A stretch of 64,000 bases of DNA from Candidatus Tritonobacter lacicola. Its GTDB lineage: Bacteria > Auribacterota > Tritonobacteria > Tritonobacterales > Tritonobacteraceae. This document shows, in pieces, positions 8,610 through 54,699 of the stretch; the stretch's first letter is position 1, and each line of letters begins with the position of its first letter. The position numbers and the translations under genes are program-made. The DNA lies in the NCBI GenBank assembly GCA_030765135.1, contig JAVCDC010000009.1, forward strand, positions 5,682-69,681, written 5' to 3'. The notes beneath the pieces are model-generated. The model saw nothing but the letters and a program-made list of their open reading frames with translations. It did not search any database and had not been told where the DNA came from.

Positions 8610-8720
8610 TATTTCACTGTTAATAGAGGTGAATTTACGGCGTATTCCTCTCCCGGGAAGATAAAACCCGTATCTCGTGAACCATTAGAGAGGGGTCCTT
8701 GGACCCCTCTCTTTTATTAT

Positions 8721-8797
8721 GGGGTGAGCGACGGGATTTGAACCCGCGGCCTCCTGGGCCACAACCAGGTGCTCTAACCAGCTGAGCTACGCCCACC
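8721..8797 (-). tRNA. tRNA-His (GTG)
   Basis: Reverse complement reads GGTGGGCGTAGCTCAGCTGGTTAGAGCACCTGGTTGTGGCCCAGGAGGCCGCGGGTTCAAATCCCGTCGCTCACC(CCA). Anticodon stem CCTGG/CCAGG, loop TTGTGGC, anticodon GTG. Cloverleaf is consistent by eye. Confidence 0.85.
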
Positions 8798-8858: not shown

Positions 8859-9653
8859 TCAAGTTTTGTCCACAATGCGAAGAGGCTGCGGATTATCCTC
8901 CGGAATTTTCAGCGCCGGCACCCGCTGTCTATTCCTGGTCCGCACAGGGCGAAGGAGCCGGGCTAAAAAGAGCCACAGAAGGACCTTCCCCATCCCGAGA
9001 ATGGTAAGAGGCCTGGTAACGCTTTCGACCCTTCCTGCCTTAACAGCCGCCACGACGCTCCCCGGATCGTCCTTTTCCGACTCCACCAGCGAGAATGAGC
9101 GGCCGAACTGGAAGAAGAAGTGGGCGTCCGACGTCCCCACGAGCGGCAATCCATAACGCCGTGCGTACCGCTCCGCTTTCTCATTGAGGTTAATATGCTG
9201 CGAGTAGAAATGCGACGCCTCCAGTGCGTCGAAGAGGTGGAGGTTCTCCTTGAGGCTCTTCCCGAGACACACCCTGGCCCTATGGAACGGATGGGGAGCT
9301 ATGATGAGGGTCTCATCGTCCTTGATTTTCTCCAGCTCTTCGAATGTCCCGATCCTCTTATCGAGCTTATTCCCACGCAGCCTTGAGTTGATGACCAGGA
9401 CGTGCTTCCCCCTCACCGATATCTCCGAGCCCGGTAAAAGAAGAATCCCCCTCCTCCAGGCGTACTTCTTAAGTTCGTCATCGAAGGTGACAATATTATG
9501 GTTGGTAATCGAGAGAACATCGAAGCCGAGCTTCGCCGCCACATTGATTAACTCCCGCGCGGACATCTCTGCAACGTCCTCGGGATCCTCCGCCGTGTGG
9601 ACATGTAAATCGCATTTTATTGGGGACACTCTTTGGAACTCCTTGCCAAACAA
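8859..9653 (-). CDS. PHP-domain metal-dependent phosphoesterase
   Basis: N-terminal CDLHVHT...SARELINVAAKLGFDVLSITNHN, the PHP (polymerase/histidinol phosphatase) His-rich motifs. Later PHPFH and SDAHF metal ligands. Confidence 0.75.
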   Translation of the reverse strand: MFGKEFQRVSPIKCDLHVHTAEDPEDVAEMSARELINVAAKLGFDVLSITNHNIVTFDDELKKYAWRRGILLLPGSEISVRGKHVLVINSRLRGNKLDKRIGTFEELEKIKDDETLIIAPHPFHRARVCLGKSLKENLHLFDALEASHFYSQHINLNEKAERYARRYGLPLVGTSDAHFFFQFGRSFSLVESEKDDPGSVVAAVKAGRVESVTRPLTILGMGKVLLWLFLARLLRPVRTRNRQRVPALKIPEDNPQPLRIVDKT

Positions 9654-9657
9654 TGAG

Positions 9658-10347
9658 TTATCTGGAAACTATTTTAGGAGGGCGCCCGGTCCTCGGTCTT
9701 GGACGCCCCTGCCTAATACCCATTGCCATTAAAAAACTCTCGCTTCCTAATACGTCAGTGTTGCTTTTAAAATATTTTTCTTCCGCAATCGCCTTTTCCT
9801 TATCCAGCAACCACTCCCTGTAAGCTTTCCGTCTTTCCTCGACGGTAGTTCCCATTGCCGTCCATTCGGGATCGGGAGTAACGAGCGGATCGTTTTCACC
9901 CAATACGTAAAACCGAGCGCTCGACCATGGCCATTCCCAGGGGACGGTCACCAGGCCGGCTCTCACTGGGTTTCTCTCCACATAACGAGCGCATGCAAGA
10001 AGATAAGAAGATTGCTCTATGGCTTGGCTTTTAAATCTGCTTTGGAACAATCGCCCTGCCGTATTATATCGCTTATGGTACCTCCTCGCGTAAACTTGCT
10101 GCAGGCCTCCAATAGCCTTAGAGAGACTCCAAAAATCTCTCAACTTTAAAATTAAGTGAAAGTGATTATGCATAACACACCAATGATAAATGGAAAATTC
10201 AAAGAGTTGCGCGTATCTGGCTACTATTTTCAGGAAGGAATTGACATCCCTTTGATCATGGAAGATGTCATGCTTGAGAATGCCGCGGTTTATAATATGG
10301 TAAACCAATGAGTCGCTGAGTTTATATTTTCTTGCCGTTCGAGGCAT
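9658..10347 (-). CDS. IS200/IS605-like HuH Y1 transposase homolog (RAYT-like, 229 aa)
   Basis: YHIINRG...HWCVMHNHFHLILKL (HuH motif) and downstream catalytic-Tyr region (YLLACARYVERNPVRAGLV). Longer than classical IS200 TnpA, as seen in REP-associated or domesticated Y1 transposases. Confidence 0.75.
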   Translation of the reverse strand: MPRTARKYKLSDSLVYHIINRGILKHDIFHDQRDVNSFLKIVARYAQLFEFSIYHWCVMHNHFHLILKLRDFWSLSKAIGGLQQVYARRYHKRYNTAGRLFQSRFKSQAIEQSSYLLACARYVERNPVRAGLVTVPWEWPWSSARFYVLGENDPLVTPDPEWTAMGTTVEERRKAYREWLLDKEKAIAEEKYFKSNTDVLGSESFLMAMGIRQGRPRPRTGRPPKIVSR

Positions 10348-10411
10348 AAGATTATCCTATCACAGAACCGGAGCTGAGCAAATAGTTTCCAGTTAATACT
10401 TTGTGCCGTAA

Positions 10412-10645
10412 TTAGTTGCCAAGAGTGTCCCCAATTTTCCGCCCCCCGAAAGGAAACGGATCACGCCCTATCTCGCCCTCCCTCCCCTTCCGGAGATAGT
10501 TGTTCACGTAGCGAAGGCACTCCCCCCGCGAGTATCCCTCGACCACGAAACCCAGCGCGTCTCCGAGAGCCTGGCCTATGAGACAGCCGCTGTATTGTTC
10601 TTCCCGGGGTACTTCCACATATTTGCTTGCCGTTTTTACCATCAA
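10412..10645 (-). pseudogene. truncated ADP-ribosylglycohydrolase (N-terminal fragment only, 77 aa)
   Basis: GCLIGQALGDALGFVVEG is the conserved N-terminal motif of the ADP-ribosylglycohydrolase (DraG/ARH) family. Full-length proteins are ~300 aa. The ORF stops after 77 aa and abuts the transposase homolog. Confidence 0.55.
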
Positions 10646-10756
10646 GTGGTATTATAACATTGCTGCTTTGGAATTTTTATAAAGCAGATATCTCCGGCGA
10701 AGCCGGAGAATTAATAAATTCGCGAACGAAGTGAGCGAATTTATGATCTTTGATAT

Positions 10757-11141
10757 GGGGGCGAAAAGGTTTCGACTGATCTAGGAAACCGGTAGCGGCA
10801 TGCAGAGGTTGAGAGGAGGCCTCTTCCCGAAAGGGACCCTGAGCTTGTCGAAGGGTAAAACACCTCTCACACCAAGTAACTGCAGACGAGCAGTTCGCAC
10901 TAGCTGCTTAAGCAGCTACGTCCACGGGTCCGGCCTGCGGGGCCCGGATGGACGACCGGAGCAGGCTGGCCTCGAACCCGAGCCACCGGGGCAAGAGGCG
11001 AGATCGTCTTCGTGGAGGCTAGTTCTCCGTAGGTCCTGTCCGCCGGAGTTGCGGAGAGCGAATGAAAAAGACGGACTAAGCATGTAGAGGCTTCCGGTGA
11101 CATATTTCAGGACGCGGGTTCGATTCCCGCCGCCTCCACCA
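10757..11141 (+). ncRNA. ssrA: tmRNA (SsrA)
   Basis: 5' GGGGGCGAAAAGGUUUCGAC and 3' tRNA-like end GGACGCGGGTTCGATTCCCGCCGCCTCCACCA. Internal tag reading frame GCA GAC GAG CAG TTC GCA CTA GCT GCT TAA encodes ADEQFALAA* (canonical ...ALAA tail). smpB lies immediately downstream on the opposite strand. Confidence 0.9.
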
Positions 11142-12797: not shown

Positions 12798-12942
12798 ATA
12801 AAGCGGTTACTGGTTACTAGTTTCTGGTTTTTGGTTGCTTGTTTCCGGTCAAGACCCCTTGTTGCGGCTGGATGCGACGGTTTCAATGAGTTCTGTGGCA
12901 GGTTATTATCCTCGTTAGGCATCCAATGGAACAGAATCGGCA

Positions 12943-27937: not shown

Positions 27938-28015
27938 GGTCGGGGCGCCGGGATTTGAACCCGGGGCCTCCTGCTCCCAAAGCAGGCGCGCTAAACCGGA
28001 CTGCGCCACGCCCCG
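27938..28015 (-). tRNA. tRNA-Pro (TGG)
   Basis: Reverse complement reads CGGGGCGTGGCGCAGTCCGGTTTAGCGCGCCTGCTTTGGGAGCAGGAGGCCCCGGGTTCAAATCCCGGCGCCCCGACCA. Anticodon loop TTTGGGA gives anticodon TGG; CCA is encoded. Confidence 0.8.
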
Positions 28016-28157
28016 ATTTTCTCCATACCATTAGGTTCTGCAATACTTTTTACTAATGAAACCGCCTTATTGCCCCCTCTTCACTTCGTTCATCGGGATC
28101 TAAGAATTTCATGGTATTTAGCTTCGCTACGCTCGCTAAATACCTGAACTTCTAAGA

Positions 28158-28191
28158 CGGACTGCGCCACGCCCCGATTTTCTCCATACCA
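28158..28191. repeat. 34-bp direct repeat of the tRNA-Pro 5' end plus upstream flank (second copy; first copy 27997..28030)
   Basis: CGGACTGCGCCACGCCCCGATTTTCTCCATACCA occurs identically at 27997..28030 and 28158..28191. Copy 1 spans the first ~19 nt of the tRNA (minus strand) plus 15 nt upstream. The ~127-bp spacer is AT-rich. Confidence 0.85.
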
Positions 28192-40687: not shown

Positions 40688-40888
40688 CTACTTTCTGCCG
40701 TACTTCCTGCGGAACTTTTCAACCCTTCCGGCCGTATCGATATACTTCTGTTTCCCGGTAAAGAAAGGATGGCACTTCGAGCAGATACCGACCTTTATGT
40801 TCTCCTTCGTGGAACGGGTTTGTATAACCTCGCCGCAGGCGCAGGAGATCGTCGTATCAACGTACTCTGGATGGATACCCTTTTTCAT
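40688..40888 (-). CDS. rpmE: 50S ribosomal protein L31 (zinc-binding type)
   Basis: MKKGIHPEY...CACGEV...[16 protein letters not shown] listed from 40900; the start is more likely at MKKGIHP. Confidence 0.9.
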
Positions 40889-41007
40889 AAATTCGCTCAC
40901 TACGTTCGCTAATTTAGCTCAATTCCCAATCAATAACGTAAAGGTAACACGGGCTTTTTAAAAATAGCAACCCCTTAATTAAAAACCAGAAACCAGTAAC
41001 TGTCTTT

Positions 41008-42992: not shown

Positions 42993-43019
42993 GCTATCAG
43001 CTCCATAAAACATTGAACC

Positions 43020-43165
43020 GGAATGAATAATAAGCAAACACCAATAACCAAGATACAAACAATATCCAATGAGCAATAACCAATTATCAAACTGTTTGGA
43101 TATCGGAGTTTGAATATTGAGATTTGTTTGGTCATTGTATCTTGTATCTTGGTTATTGTTGTTTG
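43020..43165. repeat. AT-rich long imperfect palindrome (inverted-repeat element) between coaE and polA
   Basis: Left arm ...CAAACACCAATAACCAAGATACAAACAAT... and right arm ...TTGTATCTTGTATCTTGGTTATTGTTGTTTGG... are reverse complements with a few mismatches. The centre contains CAAACTGTTTG. Strikingly AT-rich relative to the flanking genes. Confidence 0.6.
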
Positions 43166-43166
43166 G

Positions 43167-45800
43167 TTATAGCTCGCCCCAGTTCCTTCCCACGGCTGTT
43201 CTGACCCTCAGCGGGACCGAGAGCTTATATATCTTCTCCATGATACCTTTTACCTCCGTTTCAGCGGCGGCGACGCGATCCTCGTACACCTCGAATATGA
43301 GCTCATCGTGGAGGTTTATGAGCAGGCGGGCGCCGGGCACGTCACGGCAAACGGAAATCATCGCCAGATTGATCAGGTCGGCGGCCGAGCCCTGAACGGG
43401 CGTGTTGATCGCGAGCCGCTCGCTCTGCTCCCGGGCCTGCCTTGAGATGCTGTTTATCTCGGGAAGATACCGCCTCCGTCCGAGTATCGTGCGGACATAA
43501 CCAAGCTCTCTCGCCTCGGAGAGAAGACGGTCGATGTACTCCCGCACGCCGCTGTACCTCCGGAAGTAATTGTCGATAAAGAGCTGCGCCTCGGCAAACC
43601 CTATGGACAGCTCCTGCGCGAGGCCGTACGCGCTCATGCCGTAGATGATACCGAAATTTATCGTCTTGGCGCGGCGGCGCATTTCGGCTGTTACGTCCTC
43701 CTCGTCCACGCCGAAGACCGCGCCGGCCGTGAAGCGGTGAATATCCTCACCCCTTTCGAAGGCGGAGATGAGATCGGCGTCCCCCGACAGATGGGCCAGA
43801 AGACGAAGGTCTATCTGGGAATAGTCGGCCGAGAGAAACAGATAATCATCGGATGCGGGGATGAACGCCTCCCGGATCTTCCGGCCGAGCTCCGTCCGCA
43901 CGGGGATGTTCTGAAGGTTTGGATCGCTCGAGGAAAGCCTGCCGGTCGCGGTCCCGGTTTGATTGAACGAGGCGTGGATCCTCCCCGTCTCCGGGTTGAC
44001 GAGATCCGGGAGAGTGTCCAGGTAGGTGGATTTCAGTTTCGCGAGCCGGCGGTATTCCAGTACCTTCCCGGGGAGTGGATGCATCGCGGCCAGCTTCGTG
44101 AGAACCCCTACATCGGTCGAATAGCCGGTTTTAGTCTTCTTCTGGACGGGAAGCTCAAGCACGTCGAACAGGACCACGCCAAGCTGCTTCGGTGAATTCA
44201 CATTAAACGGGCGGCCCGCCTGCTTGATTATCTCCGCCTCGAGCCTCTCGAGATCCACGGCGATCGCGGCGGACATTCGCCTGAGCAGCGCGCTGTCCAG
44301 CCTCACACCGTTTCTCTCCATTCCCGCGATAACCTCGATAAGGGGAAGCTCCGTCGAGTCGAACAGCTCCCTCAGCCCCTTCTCCATCAACTCCTTCTCC
44401 AGGATACTCTTCAGCCTGAGCGTGATATCGGCGTCCTCGCAGGAGTAGCGGCACACTTCTTCAACAGGCACTTCGACCAGCTTACTCTCGCCCCTGCCGA
44501 TAAGGCTGCGAATGGGGATCATCCTGTGGCCGAGGTAGTCGAGGGAGAGGGCGTCGAGTCCGTGCGCCCGTTTGCCCGGACTGAGAAGGTGCGATGCCAC
44601 CATCGTGTCGAAGACGATCCCCTTGAGGCTCACACCGTGCCGGCCGAGGACAAGCAGATCGTACTTGATATTCTGGCCGATCTTTCCGATCGCCGGATCC
44701 TCGAGGATCGGCTTAAGTCCCCGAAGTATTACCTCCTTTCCCATCGCGCGGTTAAACGGGATGTAGCAGGCTTCCTTTTCCCTCCAGGAAAAGGATATGC
44801 CGACGATCTCCGCATCCATCGCGTTGACGGAGGTTGTCTCCACATCGATCACGAACGGGGACTGCGCGCCCAGTTGAGAGAGAAGCTCTCCCAGCTTTTC
44901 CCCGTCGTCAATCAGCTCGTATTTAAGCTGCTCATCGCCTGCGCCGCCTTCGGGCACGATATCCTTGAGGACGCTCCAGAGTTCGAGTTTCCTGAGAAGT
45001 TCGACGAGAGAATCGATGTCGGCGTTGCTCCTTCGACAATTCGCCGGCCCGACCCCAATATCCACATCGGTCATGAGCCGGACAAGTCCCATGCTCAAAC
45101 GCGCCTTATCGGCATTGGCCAGAAGGCTTTCTCGAACCCTCTTGTTCCGGACCTCCGGAGCATGGGCAAGGACGGATTCCATATCACCGTACTCATTGAT
45201 GAGCCTGACCGCCCATTTCTCGCCCACACCCGGGACCCCGGGCACGTTGTCGCTCGCATCCCCCATGAGTGACAGCATATCCGCTATCCTCTCGGGGCCG
45301 ACCCCGTACCTCTTTCTCACCGCCTCGGCATCGTAGAGATGGCTCTTCTCGTGGGAGCCCCTTACCTTTATTCTGTCGGTGACGAGGCTCAACATATCCT
45401 TGTCTCCGCTCGATATCATAACCTCCATGCCCTCCATCTCGCTCGTACGCGCAAGCGTGGCTATAATATCGTCCGCCTCGTATCCCTCCTTCTCGATCAA
45501 CATAACCCCGTACGCTTCTATGAATCTCTTTATCGCCGGGATCTGAACGGCAAGCTCATCGGGCATTGCCTTCCTGTGCGCTTTATATTCCCTGTACTCC
45601 CTGTGCCGGAAAGTCTCGCCGGGAAGATCCATGACCACGGCGATGAAATCGTAATCTCCCGCGGCAGCGACCAGCATGCGAGCGAAACCGACCACGGCGT
45701 TCGTCGGGCGGCCCTCAGAGTTCGTCAGAAGGGGAAGGCCATGAAAGAGCCGGTATATATGCGACATTCCGTCTATCAGGAGGATCTTTTTATTTTTCAT
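43167..45800 (-). CDS. polA: DNA polymerase I
   Basis: ORF 43167..45869. Likely start MKNKKILLIDGMSHIYR (5'-3' exonuclease N-terminus). 3'-5' exo motifs, polymerase motif A (LLSADYSQIDLRLLAH) and motif C region (NLHDELIFEV variant). Confidence 0.92.
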   Translation of the reverse strand: MKNKKILLIDGMSHIYRLFHGLPLLTNSEGRPTNAVVGFARMLVAAAGDYDFIAVVMDLPGETFRHREYREYKAHRKAMPDELAVQIPAIKRFIEAYGVMLIEKEGYEADDIIATLARTSEMEGMEVMISSGDKDMLSLVTDRIKVRGSHEKSHLYDAEAVRKRYGVGPERIADMLSLMGDASDNVPGVPGVGEKWAVRLINEYGDMESVLAHAPEVRNKRVRESLLANADKARLSMGLVRLMTDVDIGVGPANCRRSNADIDSLVELLRKLELWSVLKDIVPEGGAGDEQLKYELIDDGEKLGELLSQLGAQSPFVIDVETTSVNAMDAEIVGISFSWREKEACYIPFNRAMGKEVILRGLKPILEDPAIGKIGQNIKYDLLVLGRHGVSLKGIVFDTMVASHLLSPGKRAHGLDALSLDYLGHRMIPIRSLIGRGESKLVEVPVEEVCRYSCEDADITLRLKSILEKELMEKGLRELFDSTELPLIEVIAGMERNGVRLDSALLRRMSAAIAVDLERLEAEIIKQAGRPFNVNSPKQLGVVLFDVLELPVQKKTKTGYSTDVGVLTKLAAMHPLPGKVLEYRRLAKLKSTYLDTLPDLVNPETGRIHASFNQTGTATGRLSSSDPNLQNIPVRTELGRKIREAFIPASDDYLFLSADYSQIDLRLLAHLSGDADLISAFERGEDIHRFTAGAVFGVDEEDVTAEMRRRAKTINFGIIYGMSAYGLAQELSIGFAEAQLFIDNYFRRYSGVREYIDRLLSEARELGYVRTILGRRRYLPEINSISRQAREQSERLAINTPVQGSAADLINLAMISVCRDVPGARLLINLHDELIFEVYEDRVAAAETEVKGIMEKIYKLSVPLRVRTAVGRNWGEL

Positions 45801-49993: not shown

Positions 49994-51666
49994 TTGCTTT
50001 TCCTCCCGATTACAAGCCTGGCAATGGCCAGTACATGTTCGTTGATTCTATCATAATCGGTGAGGATATCTAAATAAATCGGGCTCGTCTCTATGGCCTC
50101 TTTCAACCCCTTCCTGAGCCTCCCGAGGTGGGCGAGCCTGAGATCTCCCTTCCAGATATGGATGTTCTTTCCCTTCGAGAGGGCCCTTCGCGCCAGCTCC
50201 GCGTCCCCCGACTTGAACGCCTCGAGGACCGACGAGAAGTTACGGAGCACGGCTTTGTGATAGCGCGATAGGTCGTTCTCCCCTTCGATCGAGAAGCAAA
50301 GGTCCGCCTCCATTCTCTTTCGCGCCAGAGGAGCCAGGCCCTTGCTCACAACGTCCCCGATGTTCTCGAGCTCGTCCGTTATGTGGACAAGGGCGGAGAC
50401 TTCGGATGACTCGCCCCCGTCAAGCCTCCTCTGCGAAATCATGACGAGGTACTTCGAGATCTCCCGGTAGAGGAAATCCGCCCTCATGTCCTCCCTCACT
50501 ATATCCTCTATCACTGTCGTGCTCTCGCAGGTGACGACCTTGAAGCTTTCCCTCAGCATCTCCCGGACGATTCCGCCCAGCCTCTCGATTTCCTTTCCCG
50601 CCTGCGTCAGGGCCATGACGGGGGAGTTGAGAAGCCTCTGGTCCAGGTAAACAACCTTCTCCACCTCTACCTGCTTCCTCCCCGGCGCGATCCGGATAAT
50701 GACCTTCGTCATGATTCCAGTAAAGCCGATGAATATGAGCGTATTGAGGACGTTGAACAGCGTGTGGGCGTTGGCAACGAGCCGTTCCGGGCTGGCCTTG
50801 CCGTAGCCCCCGAGAAAGAGCGCCGTCACCCATTCGGTCAGACGGGCGAATGGTCCTATCCAGAACATGAAAATCACCACACCGGCCACCTTGAAGAACA
50901 GGTGGGCAAAGGCAACCCTTTTCGCATTGATGTTCGCGCCGATGCTGCCCAGGAGGGCCGTGGCGCACGTCCCGATATTGGCGCCGAAGATGATGGGAAT
51001 GGCCGCCTGGAGTGGAAGCAGGGAGGTCCCGTCGGGCAGGGTCTGGGACGCGAGGGTCAGCGCGAGAGCTATCGTAGCGGCGCTCGACTGTATGATTGCC
51101 GTGAAGGCCGTGGAGACGGCAAGGCCCAGGAGCGGCCCCAGGGCAGGCCTCCGGCTCAGTACAAGGAGCATATTAACAAACTTCTCGTTCTCTTTCAGGG
51201 GGACGACACCTTCCTTCATGACCGCCATCCCGTAGAATATAAAACCGAATCCCATCAGCACGCGACCCATGTACTTCCACTTCTCGTACCTGCTCAGCAT
51301 GGATATCAGAAGGCCGGCTGCGAGCATGAGAAGGGCGTAATCGGTCACCTTGAAGGCGATAAGCTGGATGGTGAGCGTCGTTCCGATATCAGCGCCGAGA
51401 ATTACGCCCATCGTCTGAGCGAGGCTCATCAGCGAGGCGTTGACGAAGCTGACGAGCATCACAGTCGTCGCGCTGCTCGACTGTGTGCACATGGTTAGGA
51501 ATATGCCCACGCCGACGCCCAGGAACCTGTTCGAGGTGAATATTCCCAGGATCGTCTTCAGCCTGCTGCCGGCGACCTTCTGGAGCCCCTCGCTGGTCAG
51601 CTGCATCCCGTATATAAAGAGTGCAAGCCCGCCGGCAAGGAAACAGGTTATCTTCATCCAGCCCAT
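49990..51666 (-). CDS. Na+/Pi-cotransporter family protein (NptA-like) with C-terminal PhoU-like domains
   Basis: Repeated Na/Pi cotransporter motifs (GADIGTT, QSSSATT/QSSAATIA, GANIGTCATALL). The C-terminal ~200 aa are a helical PhoU-like repeat region. Confidence 0.85.
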   Translation of the reverse strand: MGWMKITCFLAGGLALFIYGMQLTSEGLQKVAGSRLKTILGIFTSNRFLGVGVGIFLTMCTQSSSATTVMLVSFVNASLMSLAQTMGVILGADIGTTLTIQLIAFKVTDYALLMLAAGLLISMLSRYEKWKYMGRVLMGFGFIFYGMAVMKEGVVPLKENEKFVNMLLVLSRRPALGPLLGLAVSTAFTAIIQSSAATIALALTLASQTLPDGTSLLPLQAAIPIIFGANIGTCATALLGSIGANINAKRVAFAHLFFKVAGVVIFMFWIGPFARLTEWVTALFLGGYGKASPERLVANAHTLFNVLNTLIFIGFTGIMTKVIIRIAPGRKQVEVEKVVYLDQRLLNSPVMALTQAGKEIERLGGIVREMLRESFKVVTCESTTVIEDIVREDMRADFLYREISKYLVMISQRRLDGGESSEVSALVHITDELENIGDVVSKGLAPLARKRMEADLCFSIEGENDLSRYHKAVLRNFSSVLEAFKSGDAELARRALSKGKNIHIWKGDLRLAHLGRLRKGLKEAIETSPIYLDILTDYDRINEHVLAIARLVIGRKSK

Positions 51667-51693
51667 AGTATAATTTTTTTCTCTTAATCCGCT

Positions 51694-51880
51694 TTATTCG
51701 CAAATCTTATTGATTTGCGAATAAGCGCCTCCAAGAGAGCATATTGCTCTCTTGGAGGTTTCGGCGCGGCGTTTCACGCCGCGCTCAAGGTTAACCCTGA
51801 GCAAAGGCCTGATAAGGCCGTAGTCGAAGCCCGCAGGGCGATTATTCATGAATGCAATAGCAATTCATGAATAAATCGGG
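51694..51880. promoter_or_regulatory. intergenic regulatory region: three consecutive stem-loops plus a duplicated palindromic 10-mer (ATTCATGAAT-N9-ATTCATGAAT)
   Basis: Perfect inverted repeats TTATTCGCAAATC..GATTTGCGAATAA (51694..51724), CCTCCAAGAGAGCA..TGCTCTCTTGGAGG (51729..51759) and GCGCGGCG...CGCCGCGC (51765..51785). At ~51845..51873, ATTCATGAATgcaatagcaATTCATGAAT, each half self-complementary. Lies between the standalone phoU-like gene and the nptA-like gene. Confidence 0.5.
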
Positions 51881-51893
51881 TTAAAGAGAAAAA

Positions 51894-52601
51894 TTATCCC
51901 ATAACTATGTATGCTATGTCCGTGGCGAACGAGTTGACCCTTCTCAACTGGCTGATGAGGTCGAGGTGTATCGCGCTCGTCTCGAGGCTTTCCTTGAGCC
52001 CCCGGTGAAGGCGGTCTATATGCAGCTCGATGAGCTGTTTACCGAGAAGGACGATCTCCATCTTTTCCTCCGTCACCTCTCTCGCCTTTTCCCCGCTGTT
52101 CTCGAAGAACCCTTCAATGGCTTTCTTCAAGCCCGAGTAGATCCGGAAGTGATAGTCGTTTATCTGCTTCCATCCGTCCGGCGAGAAGAAGAGGTCTTTC
52201 TCCGTGAGCTCGACGGCAAGGGGAAAGATATCGCGGTACACGACGGAGGCGATGAGCTTGAGCTCGTTGAGGAGCGTGAGATAACGCGTCTCGGTCTCAA
52301 CGCCCCCGGAATCCTTCCTCGCCTGGAAAAGCTTCATGAGATACTCGTAAACGGCGTCGTGCAGAAACTCTATCTTATCGTATGCCTCCTCTAAGCCGTG
52401 GAGGAAATCGGGGTCCTTTCTCCTGAACATGTCCATGATGCCCCCCGCCATCTCCGAGCACATGCCGGCGAGCCGCCCCAGCTCCTTGCCGGCCTGCTCG
52501 ATCGCTGCGGACGGGTCGCCGATCAGATCCTCCTTTATGAACTCCGGGGAGAACTTTTCCCTCTCTCTTCCTTTACCGCCGAATATCGATGTCAGCTTCA
52601 C
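51894..52601 (-). CDS. standalone PhoU-like domain protein
   Basis: 235-aa helical protein alignable to the C-terminal PhoU-like region of both neighbouring transporters (SAIHLDLISQLRRVNSFATDIAYIVMG versus STLHMSLMSGLRRLLSFATNIAYAVMG). Confidence 0.7.
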   Translation of the reverse strand: MKLTSIFGGKGREREKFSPEFIKEDLIGDPSAAIEQAGKELGRLAGMCSEMAGGIMDMFRRKDPDFLHGLEEAYDKIEFLHDAVYEYLMKLFQARKDSGGVETETRYLTLLNELKLIASVVYRDIFPLAVELTEKDLFFSPDGWKQINDYHFRIYSGLKKAIEGFFENSGEKAREVTEEKMEIVLLGKQLIELHIDRLHRGLKESLETSAIHLDLISQLRRVNSFATDIAYIVMG

Positions 52602-52602
52602 T

Positions 52603-54699
52603 CTACACCTCCCCCATAACCGCGTACGCTATGTTTGTCGCGAACGACAGGAGCCTTCTCAATCCGGACATGAGGCTCATGTGGAGGGTGCTCGTTTCGA
52701 CGGACTCGGGATGTCCCTTCGCGAGCCTCTCGAAGTGCGCCTTGGTGTATTGCTTCTCGAGCTTTACCAGGTTCTGCTTCCTCAGCGTCACTTCCTCGGC
52801 CAGCTTCGTGTTGTTCTCCTTGAAGGCGGTCGTCGCGTCCCTGACGTCCCTGGCGACCTTGTCCCCGAAGTCCCGGAGTTGTTCCCACCCCTCGGGAGAG
52901 AAAAAGAGGTTGCGCTCCATGAACTCCTCCGTCATGGGGAGGATATCCTGGCTGACCACCTTTCCGATCTCATGGTACTCGTTAAGTATGTTCATGAGGA
53001 TGAGAACGCGCTTGGACTGGGCCACGTTAAGCTCCCTGGAGCCGATCTTCGCCAGGTAGGGCCTTATCACGTTCTCGAGTATCACGACGTGATTTTCCTC
53101 CTGTATGAGCCCCTCCACGAACTCTTCGTCCTTCTTCTTGAACGCCTCGATGGCGCTGTCGCTCATGCGGACGGCTATGTCGGCCAGGCGTCCCAGCTCC
53201 TTCTCCGTCTGCTCGATCGCCGCCTGGGGCGTCGCGGTGAGGTCGCTCACGATGTATTTCGGCTTGAACATCTCCTCCTTCTCCTTGACCTCCGGCAGCA
53301 CCTTCATGACCACGTTGGCAAAGAGGTGGCTGAAGGGGAGGAAGATGAGGGCCATCGCGACGTTGAAGATCGTGTGGGCGTTGGCTATCTGGCGTGTGAT
53401 CGACCCCCCCATTTTCAGCACGATCATCGCCAGGTAGTCCTGGCCGGCTATCCAGCGCCCCATGTAGGTGAATAAGACCATGAAGAGCACGACCCCCGCC
53501 ACTTTAAACATGGTGTGGGCCATTGCCACCCGCTTGGCTGACCGCGAGGTGCCGATACACGCCAGGGCGGCGGTGACCGTGGTCCCGATGTTCGCGCCGA
53601 AGATAATCGGTATTGCGGCATCGATGCCGATGATCCCCTGGGACGCGAGGCCCAGGGCGATGGCTATGGTGGCCGCGCTCGACTGTATGACGGCGGTGAG
53701 CGCCGTCGAGACAAGCAGTCCCAGCAGGGGGTTGGCCGTGGACGCCCTCAGCGCGTTGACAAACGGCTCGTACTTGGCGAGCGGTTTCATCGACCCTCCC
53801 ATGACCTTGAGGCCGTAGAAGAGAAGGCCGAAGCCCATGAGGACCTTACCCAGGTAGTTGAAGGTCTTGTTCTTGGTGAAGAAGGTGAAGACGAAGCCAA
53901 AGAAGACGAAGCCGAGGGCGTACTGGCCGACGTCGAAAGCTATGAGCTGAACGGTCAGCGTCGTCCCGATGTCCGCCCCGAGTATCACGCCGATCGTCTG
54001 CGCCATGGTCATCAGGCCCGAGTTGACAAAGCCCACGAGAAGGACCGTCGTCGCGCTGGATGACTGGAGAATGAAGGTTATGACGATGCCCGAGATGAGT
54101 GCGATCACCCTGTTCCTGGTAAAGAATCCCAGGACGGCCTGCATCTTCTCCCCCACCCATTTCTGGAGAGAGTCCCCCATCAGGTTCATGCCGAAGATGA
54201 ACATCCCCAGCCCGCCGAGGAGCGTGAGAATAATAATGAGCATAACGCCCGCCTTATTCTCGAAATACGGGGGCTTTCCCGCGAGCTCATTGCCCTCGAG
54301 GCTCGCCGAAACGCCGTAGGACCCCGCCTTGCTCCCGAGCTGATAGGGAACTGCGGCTACGCCCTCGGCGTTCGTCTTGACGATGATATCGTGGGGGACC
54401 TTCTCCCCCGTGCTTCCGAGGAACGCGCTGGGCGTGGTCCTCTCTTTCTTCATCTTGCTCGGCTTGGCTGGATCGTGCTCGATGTAGAAGTGGACGGGTA
54501 TGCCGGCGGCGGGGCCGCCCGCCTCGTCCTCCACCAGGAGCTTGATCTCGATGATCTCCCCGACGAGCCTGAAAGCGCCGCTGCTTCCCTTCATCACCTC
54601 GGCCGTGTATCGGCCGGGGTCTGCGTACACAGCACCCGAAAACAGTGCACAGCATAGAAGACTTAATAAGATGGCCCTTTTCAACGAAGAGAAGCGCAT
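52603..54699 (-). CDS. Na+/Pi-cotransporter family protein paralog with N-terminal extracytoplasmic beta-rich domain and C-terminal PhoU-like domain
   Basis: Signal peptide (MRFSSLKRAILLSLLCCALFSGAVYA) and ~120-aa beta-rich segment (GSSGAFRLVGEIIEIKLLVEDEAGGPAAGIPVHFY...) precede the transporter core (QSSSATT..GADIGTT..GANIGTT). The PhoU-like tail resembles the standalone gene. Confidence 0.8.
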   Translation of the reverse strand: MRFSSLKRAILLSLLCCALFSGAVYADPGRYTAEVMKGSSGAFRLVGEIIEIKLLVEDEAGGPAAGIPVHFYIEHDPAKPSKMKKERTTPSAFLGSTGEKVPHDIIVKTNAEGVAAVPYQLGSKAGSYGVSASLEGNELAGKPPYFENKAGVMLIIILTLLGGLGMFIFGMNLMGDSLQKWVGEKMQAVLGFFTRNRVIALISGIVITFILQSSSATTVLLVGFVNSGLMTMAQTIGVILGADIGTTLTVQLIAFDVGQYALGFVFFGFVFTFFTKNKTFNYLGKVLMGFGLLFYGLKVMGGSMKPLAKYEPFVNALRASTANPLLGLLVSTALTAVIQSSAATIAIALGLASQGIIGIDAAIPIIFGANIGTTVTAALACIGTSRSAKRVAMAHTMFKVAGVVLFMVLFTYMGRWIAGQDYLAMIVLKMGGSITRQIANAHTIFNVAMALIFLPFSHLFANVVMKVLPEVKEKEEMFKPKYIVSDLTATPQAAIEQTEKELGRLADIAVRMSDSAIEAFKKKDEEFVEGLIQEENHVVILENVIRPYLAKIGSRELNVAQSKRVLILMNILNEYHEIGKVVSQDILPMTEEFMERNLFFSPEGWEQLRDFGDKVARDVRDATTAFKENNTKLAEEVTLRKQNLVKLEKQYTKAHFERLAKGHPESVETSTLHMSLMSGLRRLLSFATNIAYAVMGEV

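Follow-up and report, generated by a model that had tools for sequence, protein, structure and literature searches.

The transposase-like gene beside the tmRNA gene of Candidatus Tritonobacter lacicola is part of a TIRtron, an already described kind of unit in which a RAYT-like gene (TIRYT), here a member of TnpA-Y1 subclass 2.1, stands between terminal inverted repeats. The unit occupies 817 bp of the 64,000-nucleotide stretch of contig JAVCDC010000009.1 that was analysed (hereafter the window). Overall, it is probable that this TIRtron is an old, immobile resident of its site and that a neighbouring gene for an ADP-ribosylglycohydrolase (ARH) was eroded by deletions at a terminus of the repeat. 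The locus represents no new system and contributes little to classification. Its value lies in a compact natural series at one orthologous site, in which the element is intact, a pseudogene, or deleted, and its neighbours are eroded differently in each case.

An earlier note on this DNA, made from the sequence alone, had listed a 229-residue Y1 protein, a 77-residue ARH-like open reading frame (ORF), a PHP-family gene, tRNA-His, and tmRNA, all of which lie where that note placed them; it missed the inverted repeat. The element and the adjoining remnant comprise:

9658-10347, minus strand: Y1/HUH tyrosine-transposase gene (TIRYT gene), 229 aa, the ORF containing VMHNHFHLIL
9619..9674, no strand: repeat arm on the side of the PHP gene, from an inverted-repeat search
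10380..10435, no strand: repeat arm on the side of the ARH remnant, from the same search
9619..10435, minus strand: whole TIRtron, 817 bp (arm, TIRYT gene, arm), from the same search
10412-10645, minus strand: ARH 5' remnant ORF, 77 codons, containing GCLIGQALGDALG

The transposase and its family

The 229-residue protein matches the Pfam profile Y1_Tnp with 57.6 bits (cut-off 23) and carries an HuH motif (N61-H62-F-H64), an FQ pair at residues 101-102 (RLFQSRF), a tyrosine (Y122) in the motif YVERNP, and a WSSA tail; N61, H62, H64, and Y122 are invariant in an alignment of 27 homologues. Its AlphaFold2 model (pLDDT 93.3) is most similar to TnpA-REP (4er8; Foldseek E 7e-8), with ISDra2 and IS608 TnpA next, and by sequence 4er8 is the sole solved relative (E 0.41). 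The earlier note was right to see in it a Y1/HUH homologue that exceeds IS200 TnpA in length and resembles RAYTs.

Some 15% of the bacterial strains sequenced so far possess such genes (TIRYT, subclass 2.1, or Group 1 RAYT), and we know of none with a known function or a biochemically characterised activity. TIRYTs were described as RAYT-like genes with terminal inverted repeats, which together form a TIRtron and share the motif GGGGWSAS (Di Nocera, De Gregorio, Rocco 2013, BMC Genomics 14:522; PMC3733652). They have been equated with TnpA-Y1 subclass 2.1, which corresponds to the Group 1 RAYT of Bertels (Quentin, Siguier, Chandler, Fichant 2018; PMC6006769; for Group 1, see Bertels, Gallie, Rainey 2017; PMC5581495). 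Members of subclass 2.1 have NH[YF]H, FQ or W[EQ], Y---NP, an SS tail, and a median length of 238 aa (PMC6006769, Table 1); they are not associated with REPs, occur in about 1.9 copies per genome, and are reported to possess a distal C-terminal domain that is helix-turn-helix (HTH)-like (similar to Bac_DnaA_C, HTH_23, or HTH_28; PMC6006769).

The locus agrees with subclass 2.1 in NHFH, FQ, Y---NP, the SS tail, the length of 229 aa (~230-240 aa), the absence of REPs, an apparently single-copy state, and largely vertical inheritance, whereas its tyrosine motif reads YVERNP instead of the consensus YIELNP or Y[IV]HLNP. With TIRtrons it shares the RAYT-like Y1 gene, long terminal inverted repeats in place of REPs, the GGGGWSAS outer ends, an arm that reaches into the 3' end of the gene, and a species without REP families; the copy number also appears low, with one copy in the 64 kb and one locus on 24 contigs. 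It departs from the surveyed TIRtrons (Di Nocera 2013) in its uncultured host, which lies outside that survey, in the lack of a dispersed repeat family in the 64 kb, and in that a neighbour takes its ribosome-binding site and start codon from the repeat, which also delimits a truncated gene.

Homologues of ~220-240 aa number in the thousands in uncultured lineages. Three close ones (L089, L090, and L091, with 68%, 56%, and 51% identity) are located in three unrelated genomic contexts and are flanked by inverted repeats with the common outer end GGGGACAC[TC]C[TC]T. Flanking inverted repeats are found also in most of 80 distant homologues (30-42% identity) from Planctomycetota, Proteobacteria, Nitrospirota, Acidobacteriota, Omnitrophota, and other phyla, where they start with GGGGTCAG..., GGGGACAG..., or GGGGACAC.... 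The strict motif GGGG[AT][CG]A[CG] is present in the correct orientation on both sides at 29 of 75 usable loci and on at least one side at 50 of the 75; its background frequency is 0.127 per kb per orientation. The published motif was thus recovered independently here, around homologues from many phyla. A plasmid search returned only 26 distant matches (<35% identity), mostly on megaplasmids and annotated as 'transposase'.

The C-terminal domain (~145-229, ~85 residues) is confidently modelled and has no Pfam match. It ends in a basic GRP motif that recurs across the family, often as RGRPRK and here as TGRPPK (residues ~215-229; window 9658-9700; alignment columns 270-285). This tail resembles an AT-hook, and runs of A/T lie just outside the GGGG ends of the repeats, which together suggest that it may play a role in repeat binding.

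Terminal inverted repeats

The TIRYT gene is bracketed by a 56-nt imperfect inverted repeat (9619-9674 and 10380-10435) with 79% complementarity, the longest inverted repeat of the whole window. Both arms agree fully in their outer 15 nt (ATTGGGGACACTCTT) and their inner 13 nt (CTGGAAACTATTT, at 9662-9674 in the PHP-side arm); the middle has diverged and is free to do so. Within the outer block, GGGGACAC at 9622-9629, with its complement at 10425-10432, fits GGGGWSAS. The repeats are bipartite: the outer GGGGWSAS block is family-wide, while the inner block, which adjoins the start and stop of the gene, is lineage-specific (GGAAACTATTT in the window and in L089, different sequences in L090 and L091 by flank comparison). 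Both arms also contain coding sequence, as the PHP-side arm includes the stop codon of the TIRYT gene (9658-9660) and the ARH-side arm encodes the last seven codons (IGDTLGN) and the stop of the ARH remnant ORF.

Neither the REP-like hairpins nor the IS200-type palindromes for which the earlier note had allowed are present in the flanks. Single-strand DNA folds of the repeat arms, computed for both strands, are no better than those of shuffled sequences (z -0.25 to +1.4; PHP-side arm z +0.5 to +0.9), and neither arm forms a hairpin of its own. The 64 kb contain no dispersed copies of the outer or inner repeat block beyond chance-level matches with three mismatches, and no second Y1 gene.

These properties bear on the possibility that the locus is a canonical REPtron, whose RAYT spreads REP/REPIN hairpins throughout the genome. 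The best NCBIfam match is indeed REP_Tyr_transpos, the best solved fold is that of TnpA-REP, and inverted repeats flank the gene, as they do RAYT genes; with the E. coli TnpA-REP (PDB 4ER8) REPtron, the locus shares the HUH/Y1 catalytic core and the position of the gene between inverted cognate repeats. However, the REP_Tyr_transpos score of 72.7 bits remains under the cut-off of 80, the identity to TnpA-REP of E. coli is only 20%, and the ~85-residue C-terminal domain is additional. Unlike those of the E. coli REPtron, the flanking repeats are linear, with neither a GT[AG]G foot (GTAG in E. coli) nor a stable hairpin, and undispersed in the available sequence (no extra 15-nt end in the 64 kb above chance level), and their GGGGWSAS end motif is the signature of TIRYTs (PMC3733652). 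A canonical REPtron is therefore very unlikely.

An orthologous series of intact, decayed, and deleted elements

A protein of identical sequence is encoded on 24 contigs from several samples, and its context is the same on all 24. Related loci were obtained via PHP orthologues in a protein database; scanning metagenomes with only the PHP protein yielded nothing usable. With the lineage of the window designated W, the series consists of:

Lineage B (L089): Y1 68% and PHP 79% to the window; SmpB, tmRNA (same tag), repeat end twice, intact Y1, repeat, PHP; no ARH ORF
Lineage B2 (L103 and L104): PHP 95% to B; Y1 pseudogene, then repeat, PHP, tRNA-His
Lineage C (L102): PHP 73% to the window; shorter ARH remnant, one diverged arm (CAAAGAATGTCCC), PHP; no Y1 gene
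More distant loci (L095, L097, L099, L133, and L136): PHP 57-71% to the window; no element

The intact copies of the Y1 gene are under purifying selection, with proportions of non-synonymous (pN) and synonymous (pS) differences of 0.196 and 0.79. In B2 (L103 1-455; L104 1-240), the gene has decayed by a 1-nt deletion that causes a frameshift near codon 12 and by an internal deletion of ~300 nt, with AAG microhomology at its junction, in which the catalytic tyrosine was lost; PHP and the repeat arm downstream of the gene are intact. Since the element can be lost without replacement, it is unlikely to have been domesticated for an essential role in this clade. A separate peculiarity of L089 is a tandem duplication of the repeat end on the tmRNA side, where AAAAAGGGGACACCCTTTAC occurs twice, 24 nt apart (933-954 and 957-983).

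Synonymous sites among W, B, and C are saturated (pS 0.59-0.74), and all three lineages possess the repeat-PHP junction, which, judged by this comparison, is older than their split. In the distant loci L097, L099, L133, and L136, PHP follows a gene of 358 aa, with TruA upstream of it in L097 and L099, the only loci that are long enough; the upstream context of PHP in L095 is different. The element sits exactly at the break that separates this outgroup order (TruA, 358-aa gene, PHP) from the derived one (tmRNA, ARH, element, PHP). We infer from this distribution that the element is an old resident, vertically inherited, decaying in some lineages, and no longer copying itself here.

The earlier note had argued that a transposase-like gene that is single-copy and syntenic in relatives and has no palindromic ends would point to domestication rather than mobility. 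The gene is indeed found at a single locus and in synteny, but its ends are conserved inverted repeats.

Truncation of the ARH gene

Of the 287 positions in the profile ADP_ribosyl_GH (PF03747), only 1-32 are matched by the 77-codon ORF, with 24.1 bits (cut-off 26.2), whereas full-length relatives of this ARH subfamily have 335-340 aa. Searches with these relatives (tblastn) cover only residues ~4-60 (window 10445-10615) and detect no remaining ARH pieces in the 64 kb. The homology extends through ...GRDPFPFG and ends just before the conserved metal-site motif QY(T/S)DDTQ, leaving 10 nt to the repeat's outer end (~5 nt if an A-run is counted as repeat); in its last nine codons the ORF consists of the junction and part of the repeat. 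The gene is truncated, as the earlier note had recognized, and its catalytic domain is incomplete. The predicted fragment, which lacks both metal-binding motifs, cannot be an active glycohydrolase.

The remnants differ among the lineages. About 68 codons are left in W and ~40-48 in L102, whereas L089 retains at most a few; its match to the ARH start region (12 of 14 nt) is weak, being reached by 43 of 1000 shuffles (p ~0.04). The remnants of W and L089 end at the outer terminus of the same arm, whereas that of L102 abuts the PHP-side arm and has a 2-nt frameshift inside the most conserved motif. In the 29 codons that can be aligned between W and C, there are ~15 synonymous differences at 20 sites and ~8 non-synonymous differences at 67 sites (pS 0.74, pN 0.12), which indicates that this part of the gene was under selection at the amino acid level for most of the time since the two lineages diverged. 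Moreover, none of the positions conserved among full-length ARH relatives has changed in codons 44-68 of W. On the simplest reading, the ARH gene appears to have been intact beside the element until recently and to have been truncated independently in each lineage; the truncation would be recent because the surviving codons still bear the signature of selection on the protein.

The same signature could be explained if the ORF encoded a functional small protein or leader peptide and the truncation were ancestral to W and L102. Purifying selection across a saturated divergence would then have acted on the short ORF itself, which is intact in all contigs of the window population and has a TATAAT box just upstream of its start, and one ancestral event would be more parsimonious than three independent deletions. 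However, the 68 residues represent a small part of an all-helical enzyme of ~340 aa and lack the DDT and GGDxDT metal motifs, so folding is unlikely; the copy in L102 is both shorter and frameshifted, L089 has no remnant, and the last nine codons derive from the junction and the repeat. We consider a functional ORF improbable.

That the ARH homology stops at the edge of the element would also be expected if an active insertion sequence of the IS200/IS605 type had recently inserted into the ARH gene and split it. The Y1_Tnp domain and a G+C content below that of the surroundings are in line with such an origin, and the catalytic fold and HuH and tyrosine chemistry are those of IS200/IS605 TnpA (IS608, ISDra2). 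However, the downstream half of the ARH gene is absent both beyond the element and elsewhere in the 64 kb, and a recent insertion is unlikely because the repeat-PHP junction is common to lineages whose synonymous sites are saturated. The IS200/IS605 label of the earlier note likewise has to be withdrawn: the transpos_IS200 score is 24.9 (cut-off 55), the tyrosine motif is Y---NP instead of Y---Q (PMC6006769), and the core of ~130-150 aa, the subterminal hairpins, and the many copies typical of these elements are missing, as is the tnpB that often accompanies them, with no tnpB-like ORF nearby and a single locus. An insertion of this kind is largely refuted and has very little probability. Of the link that the note had drawn between truncation and element, the spatial part stands, as the homology ends 10 nt from the repeat, whereas a recent insertion into the ARH gene is unlikely.

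A possible deletion junction formed by microhomology between the DDT codons of ARH and GACAC of the repeat was rejected, as the register is one codon off and the upstream bases are mismatched. An ARH-like ORF of 43 aa (P0243) was also discarded as a second mini-ARH, because it belongs to a full-length ARH gene interrupted by one in-frame TAG. This gene (L131 501-1065; also L130 and L132) is of the same subfamily but comes from an unrelated high-G+C metagenomic organism, and the single TAG after codon 43 causes gene callers to report 43 aa.

Proposed mechanism of erosion

By analogy with TnpA-REP and IS608 TnpA, a metal bound by His62 and His64 and the tyrosine Tyr122 would cut and rejoin DNA at or near the repeat ends, and the extra C-terminal domain with its basic GRP tail would help bind repeats that lack hairpins and are flanked by A/T. 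Most likely, the neighbouring ARH gene was eroded by deletions ending at the repeat terminus. In W, the deletion would have ended at the terminus; in B, it would have removed nearly all of ARH; and in C, it would have removed the Y1 gene as well. In both the truncated gene and the break in synteny, the termini of the element coincide with breakpoints of deletion or rearrangement.

Several observations weigh against this account of an old, immobile TIRtron with eroded neighbours. Its low G+C content (45.2% vs 56.7% for the window) is odd for a long-resident sequence, the PHP gene (55.5%) and the ARH remnant (56.4%) being host-like. The HTH-like distal domain of subclass 2.1 goes undetected by Pfam in this protein, and for TIRYTs the chemistry and site of cleavage are drawn from analogy only. 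Copy number was assessed only in the 64 kb and in those contigs on which the identical protein is encoded. Lineage C is represented by one low-coverage contig, and its 2-nt frameshift is possibly an assembly error; the case for independent truncations is based on 29-33 codons. Lastly, a metagenome scan with an alignment of the ARH N terminus found no syntenic full-length gene: among 25 full-length loci (~340 aa), none is located beside tmRNA, PHP, or Y1.

The combination of differing remnants and selected codons may be the natural footprint of TIRYT cleavage at GGGGWSAS ends, that is, of adjacent deletions anchored to the element, a possibility that we put forward with more doubt than confidence. 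If true, it would show for the first time in vivo that apparently immobile TIRYTs catalyse reactions on their own ends and erode or rearrange their neighbours. The series offers ways of testing whether TIRYTs continue to cleave DNA in living cells.

The PHP gene and other neighbours

The element is followed and preceded by the following features:

8720-8796, minus strand: tRNA-His(GTG), its 3' end directed away from the cluster
8859-9629 or 9653 (alternative starts), minus strand: PHP-family phosphoesterase, a host gene, from profile match and orthologues
10691..10744, no strand: two strong hairpins between the start of the ARH remnant and tmRNA, outside the TIRtron (fold -17.4 kcal/mol, z -5.1)
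10757-11141, plus strand: tmRNA with the tag ADEQFALAA, its 5' end toward the cluster

In W, the Shine-Dalgarno sequence of PHP (AAGGAG, minus strand, 9639-9644) and its GTG start codon (9627-9629) both lie inside the PHP-side arm, and the PHP gene of lineage C has an ATG at the position equivalent to this GTG. The location of these translation signals explains why the arm survives where the Y1 gene is gone. Orthologues of PHP in the outgroup start with M(I/L)LKA(D/E)FH and have no repeat. A repeat arm can thus be recruited as the translation start of a host gene. Since only 28 nt separate PHP and the TIRYT gene, the two are probably co-transcribed. On the other side, the ARH remnant ORF ends 64 nt ahead of the Y1 start. 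A scan of the region for sigma-70 promoters gave nothing above expectation.

Integrases target the 3' ends of tRNA and tmRNA genes, and the earlier note had regarded tRNA-His and ssrA as integration hot spots for the cluster. A genomic island comprising PHP, transposase, and ARH could be suspected from the closeness to these two RNA genes, but both have their 5' side toward the cluster, neither 3' end is repeated at its flanks, and att-like direct repeats and an integrase are absent. The host-like G+C content of PHP and the ARH remnant and the order SmpB-tmRNA-element-PHP-tRNA-His, which is conserved in relatives, also speak against an island, which we regard as extremely unlikely.

Other repeats in the window

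The hairpin region upstream of tmRNA contains a 27-nt hairpin, AAATTCGCGAACGAAGTGAGCGAATTT, that recurs with two mismatches elsewhere in the window (10716-10742, plus strand; 40889-40915, minus strand), where no such pair is expected by chance. The first copy is located directly upstream of tmRNA; the second is in the rho-rpmE spacer and extends up to the start of the gene for L31 (ORF 40688-40900, beginning MKKGIHPEY). The hairpin may be a common regulatory or promoter element of these two translation-related genes. The same spacer holds one copy of a 20-nt inverted match with 95% identity (GTTACTAGTTTCTGGTTTTT and AAAAACCAGAAACCAGTAAC; 12813-12832 and 40981-41000), whose other copy lies just past tRNA-Leu.

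The second longest inverted repeat of the window is an A/T-rich sequence of 44 nt with 80% complementarity (43015-43058 and 43142-43185), its arms 83 nt apart. A direct repeat of 40 nt with 95% identity (27991-28030 and 28152-28191), the copies 161 nt apart, comprises the 5' part of tRNA-Pro(TGG) and 15 nt upstream of it and may be left over from the duplication or rearrangement of a tRNA gene. Several diverged direct repeats at 50570-54066, with 62-81% identity and a spacing of ~2.6 kb (e.g., 51332-51483 and 53915-54066; 51043-51135 and 53638-53730), indicate tandem paralogous genes.

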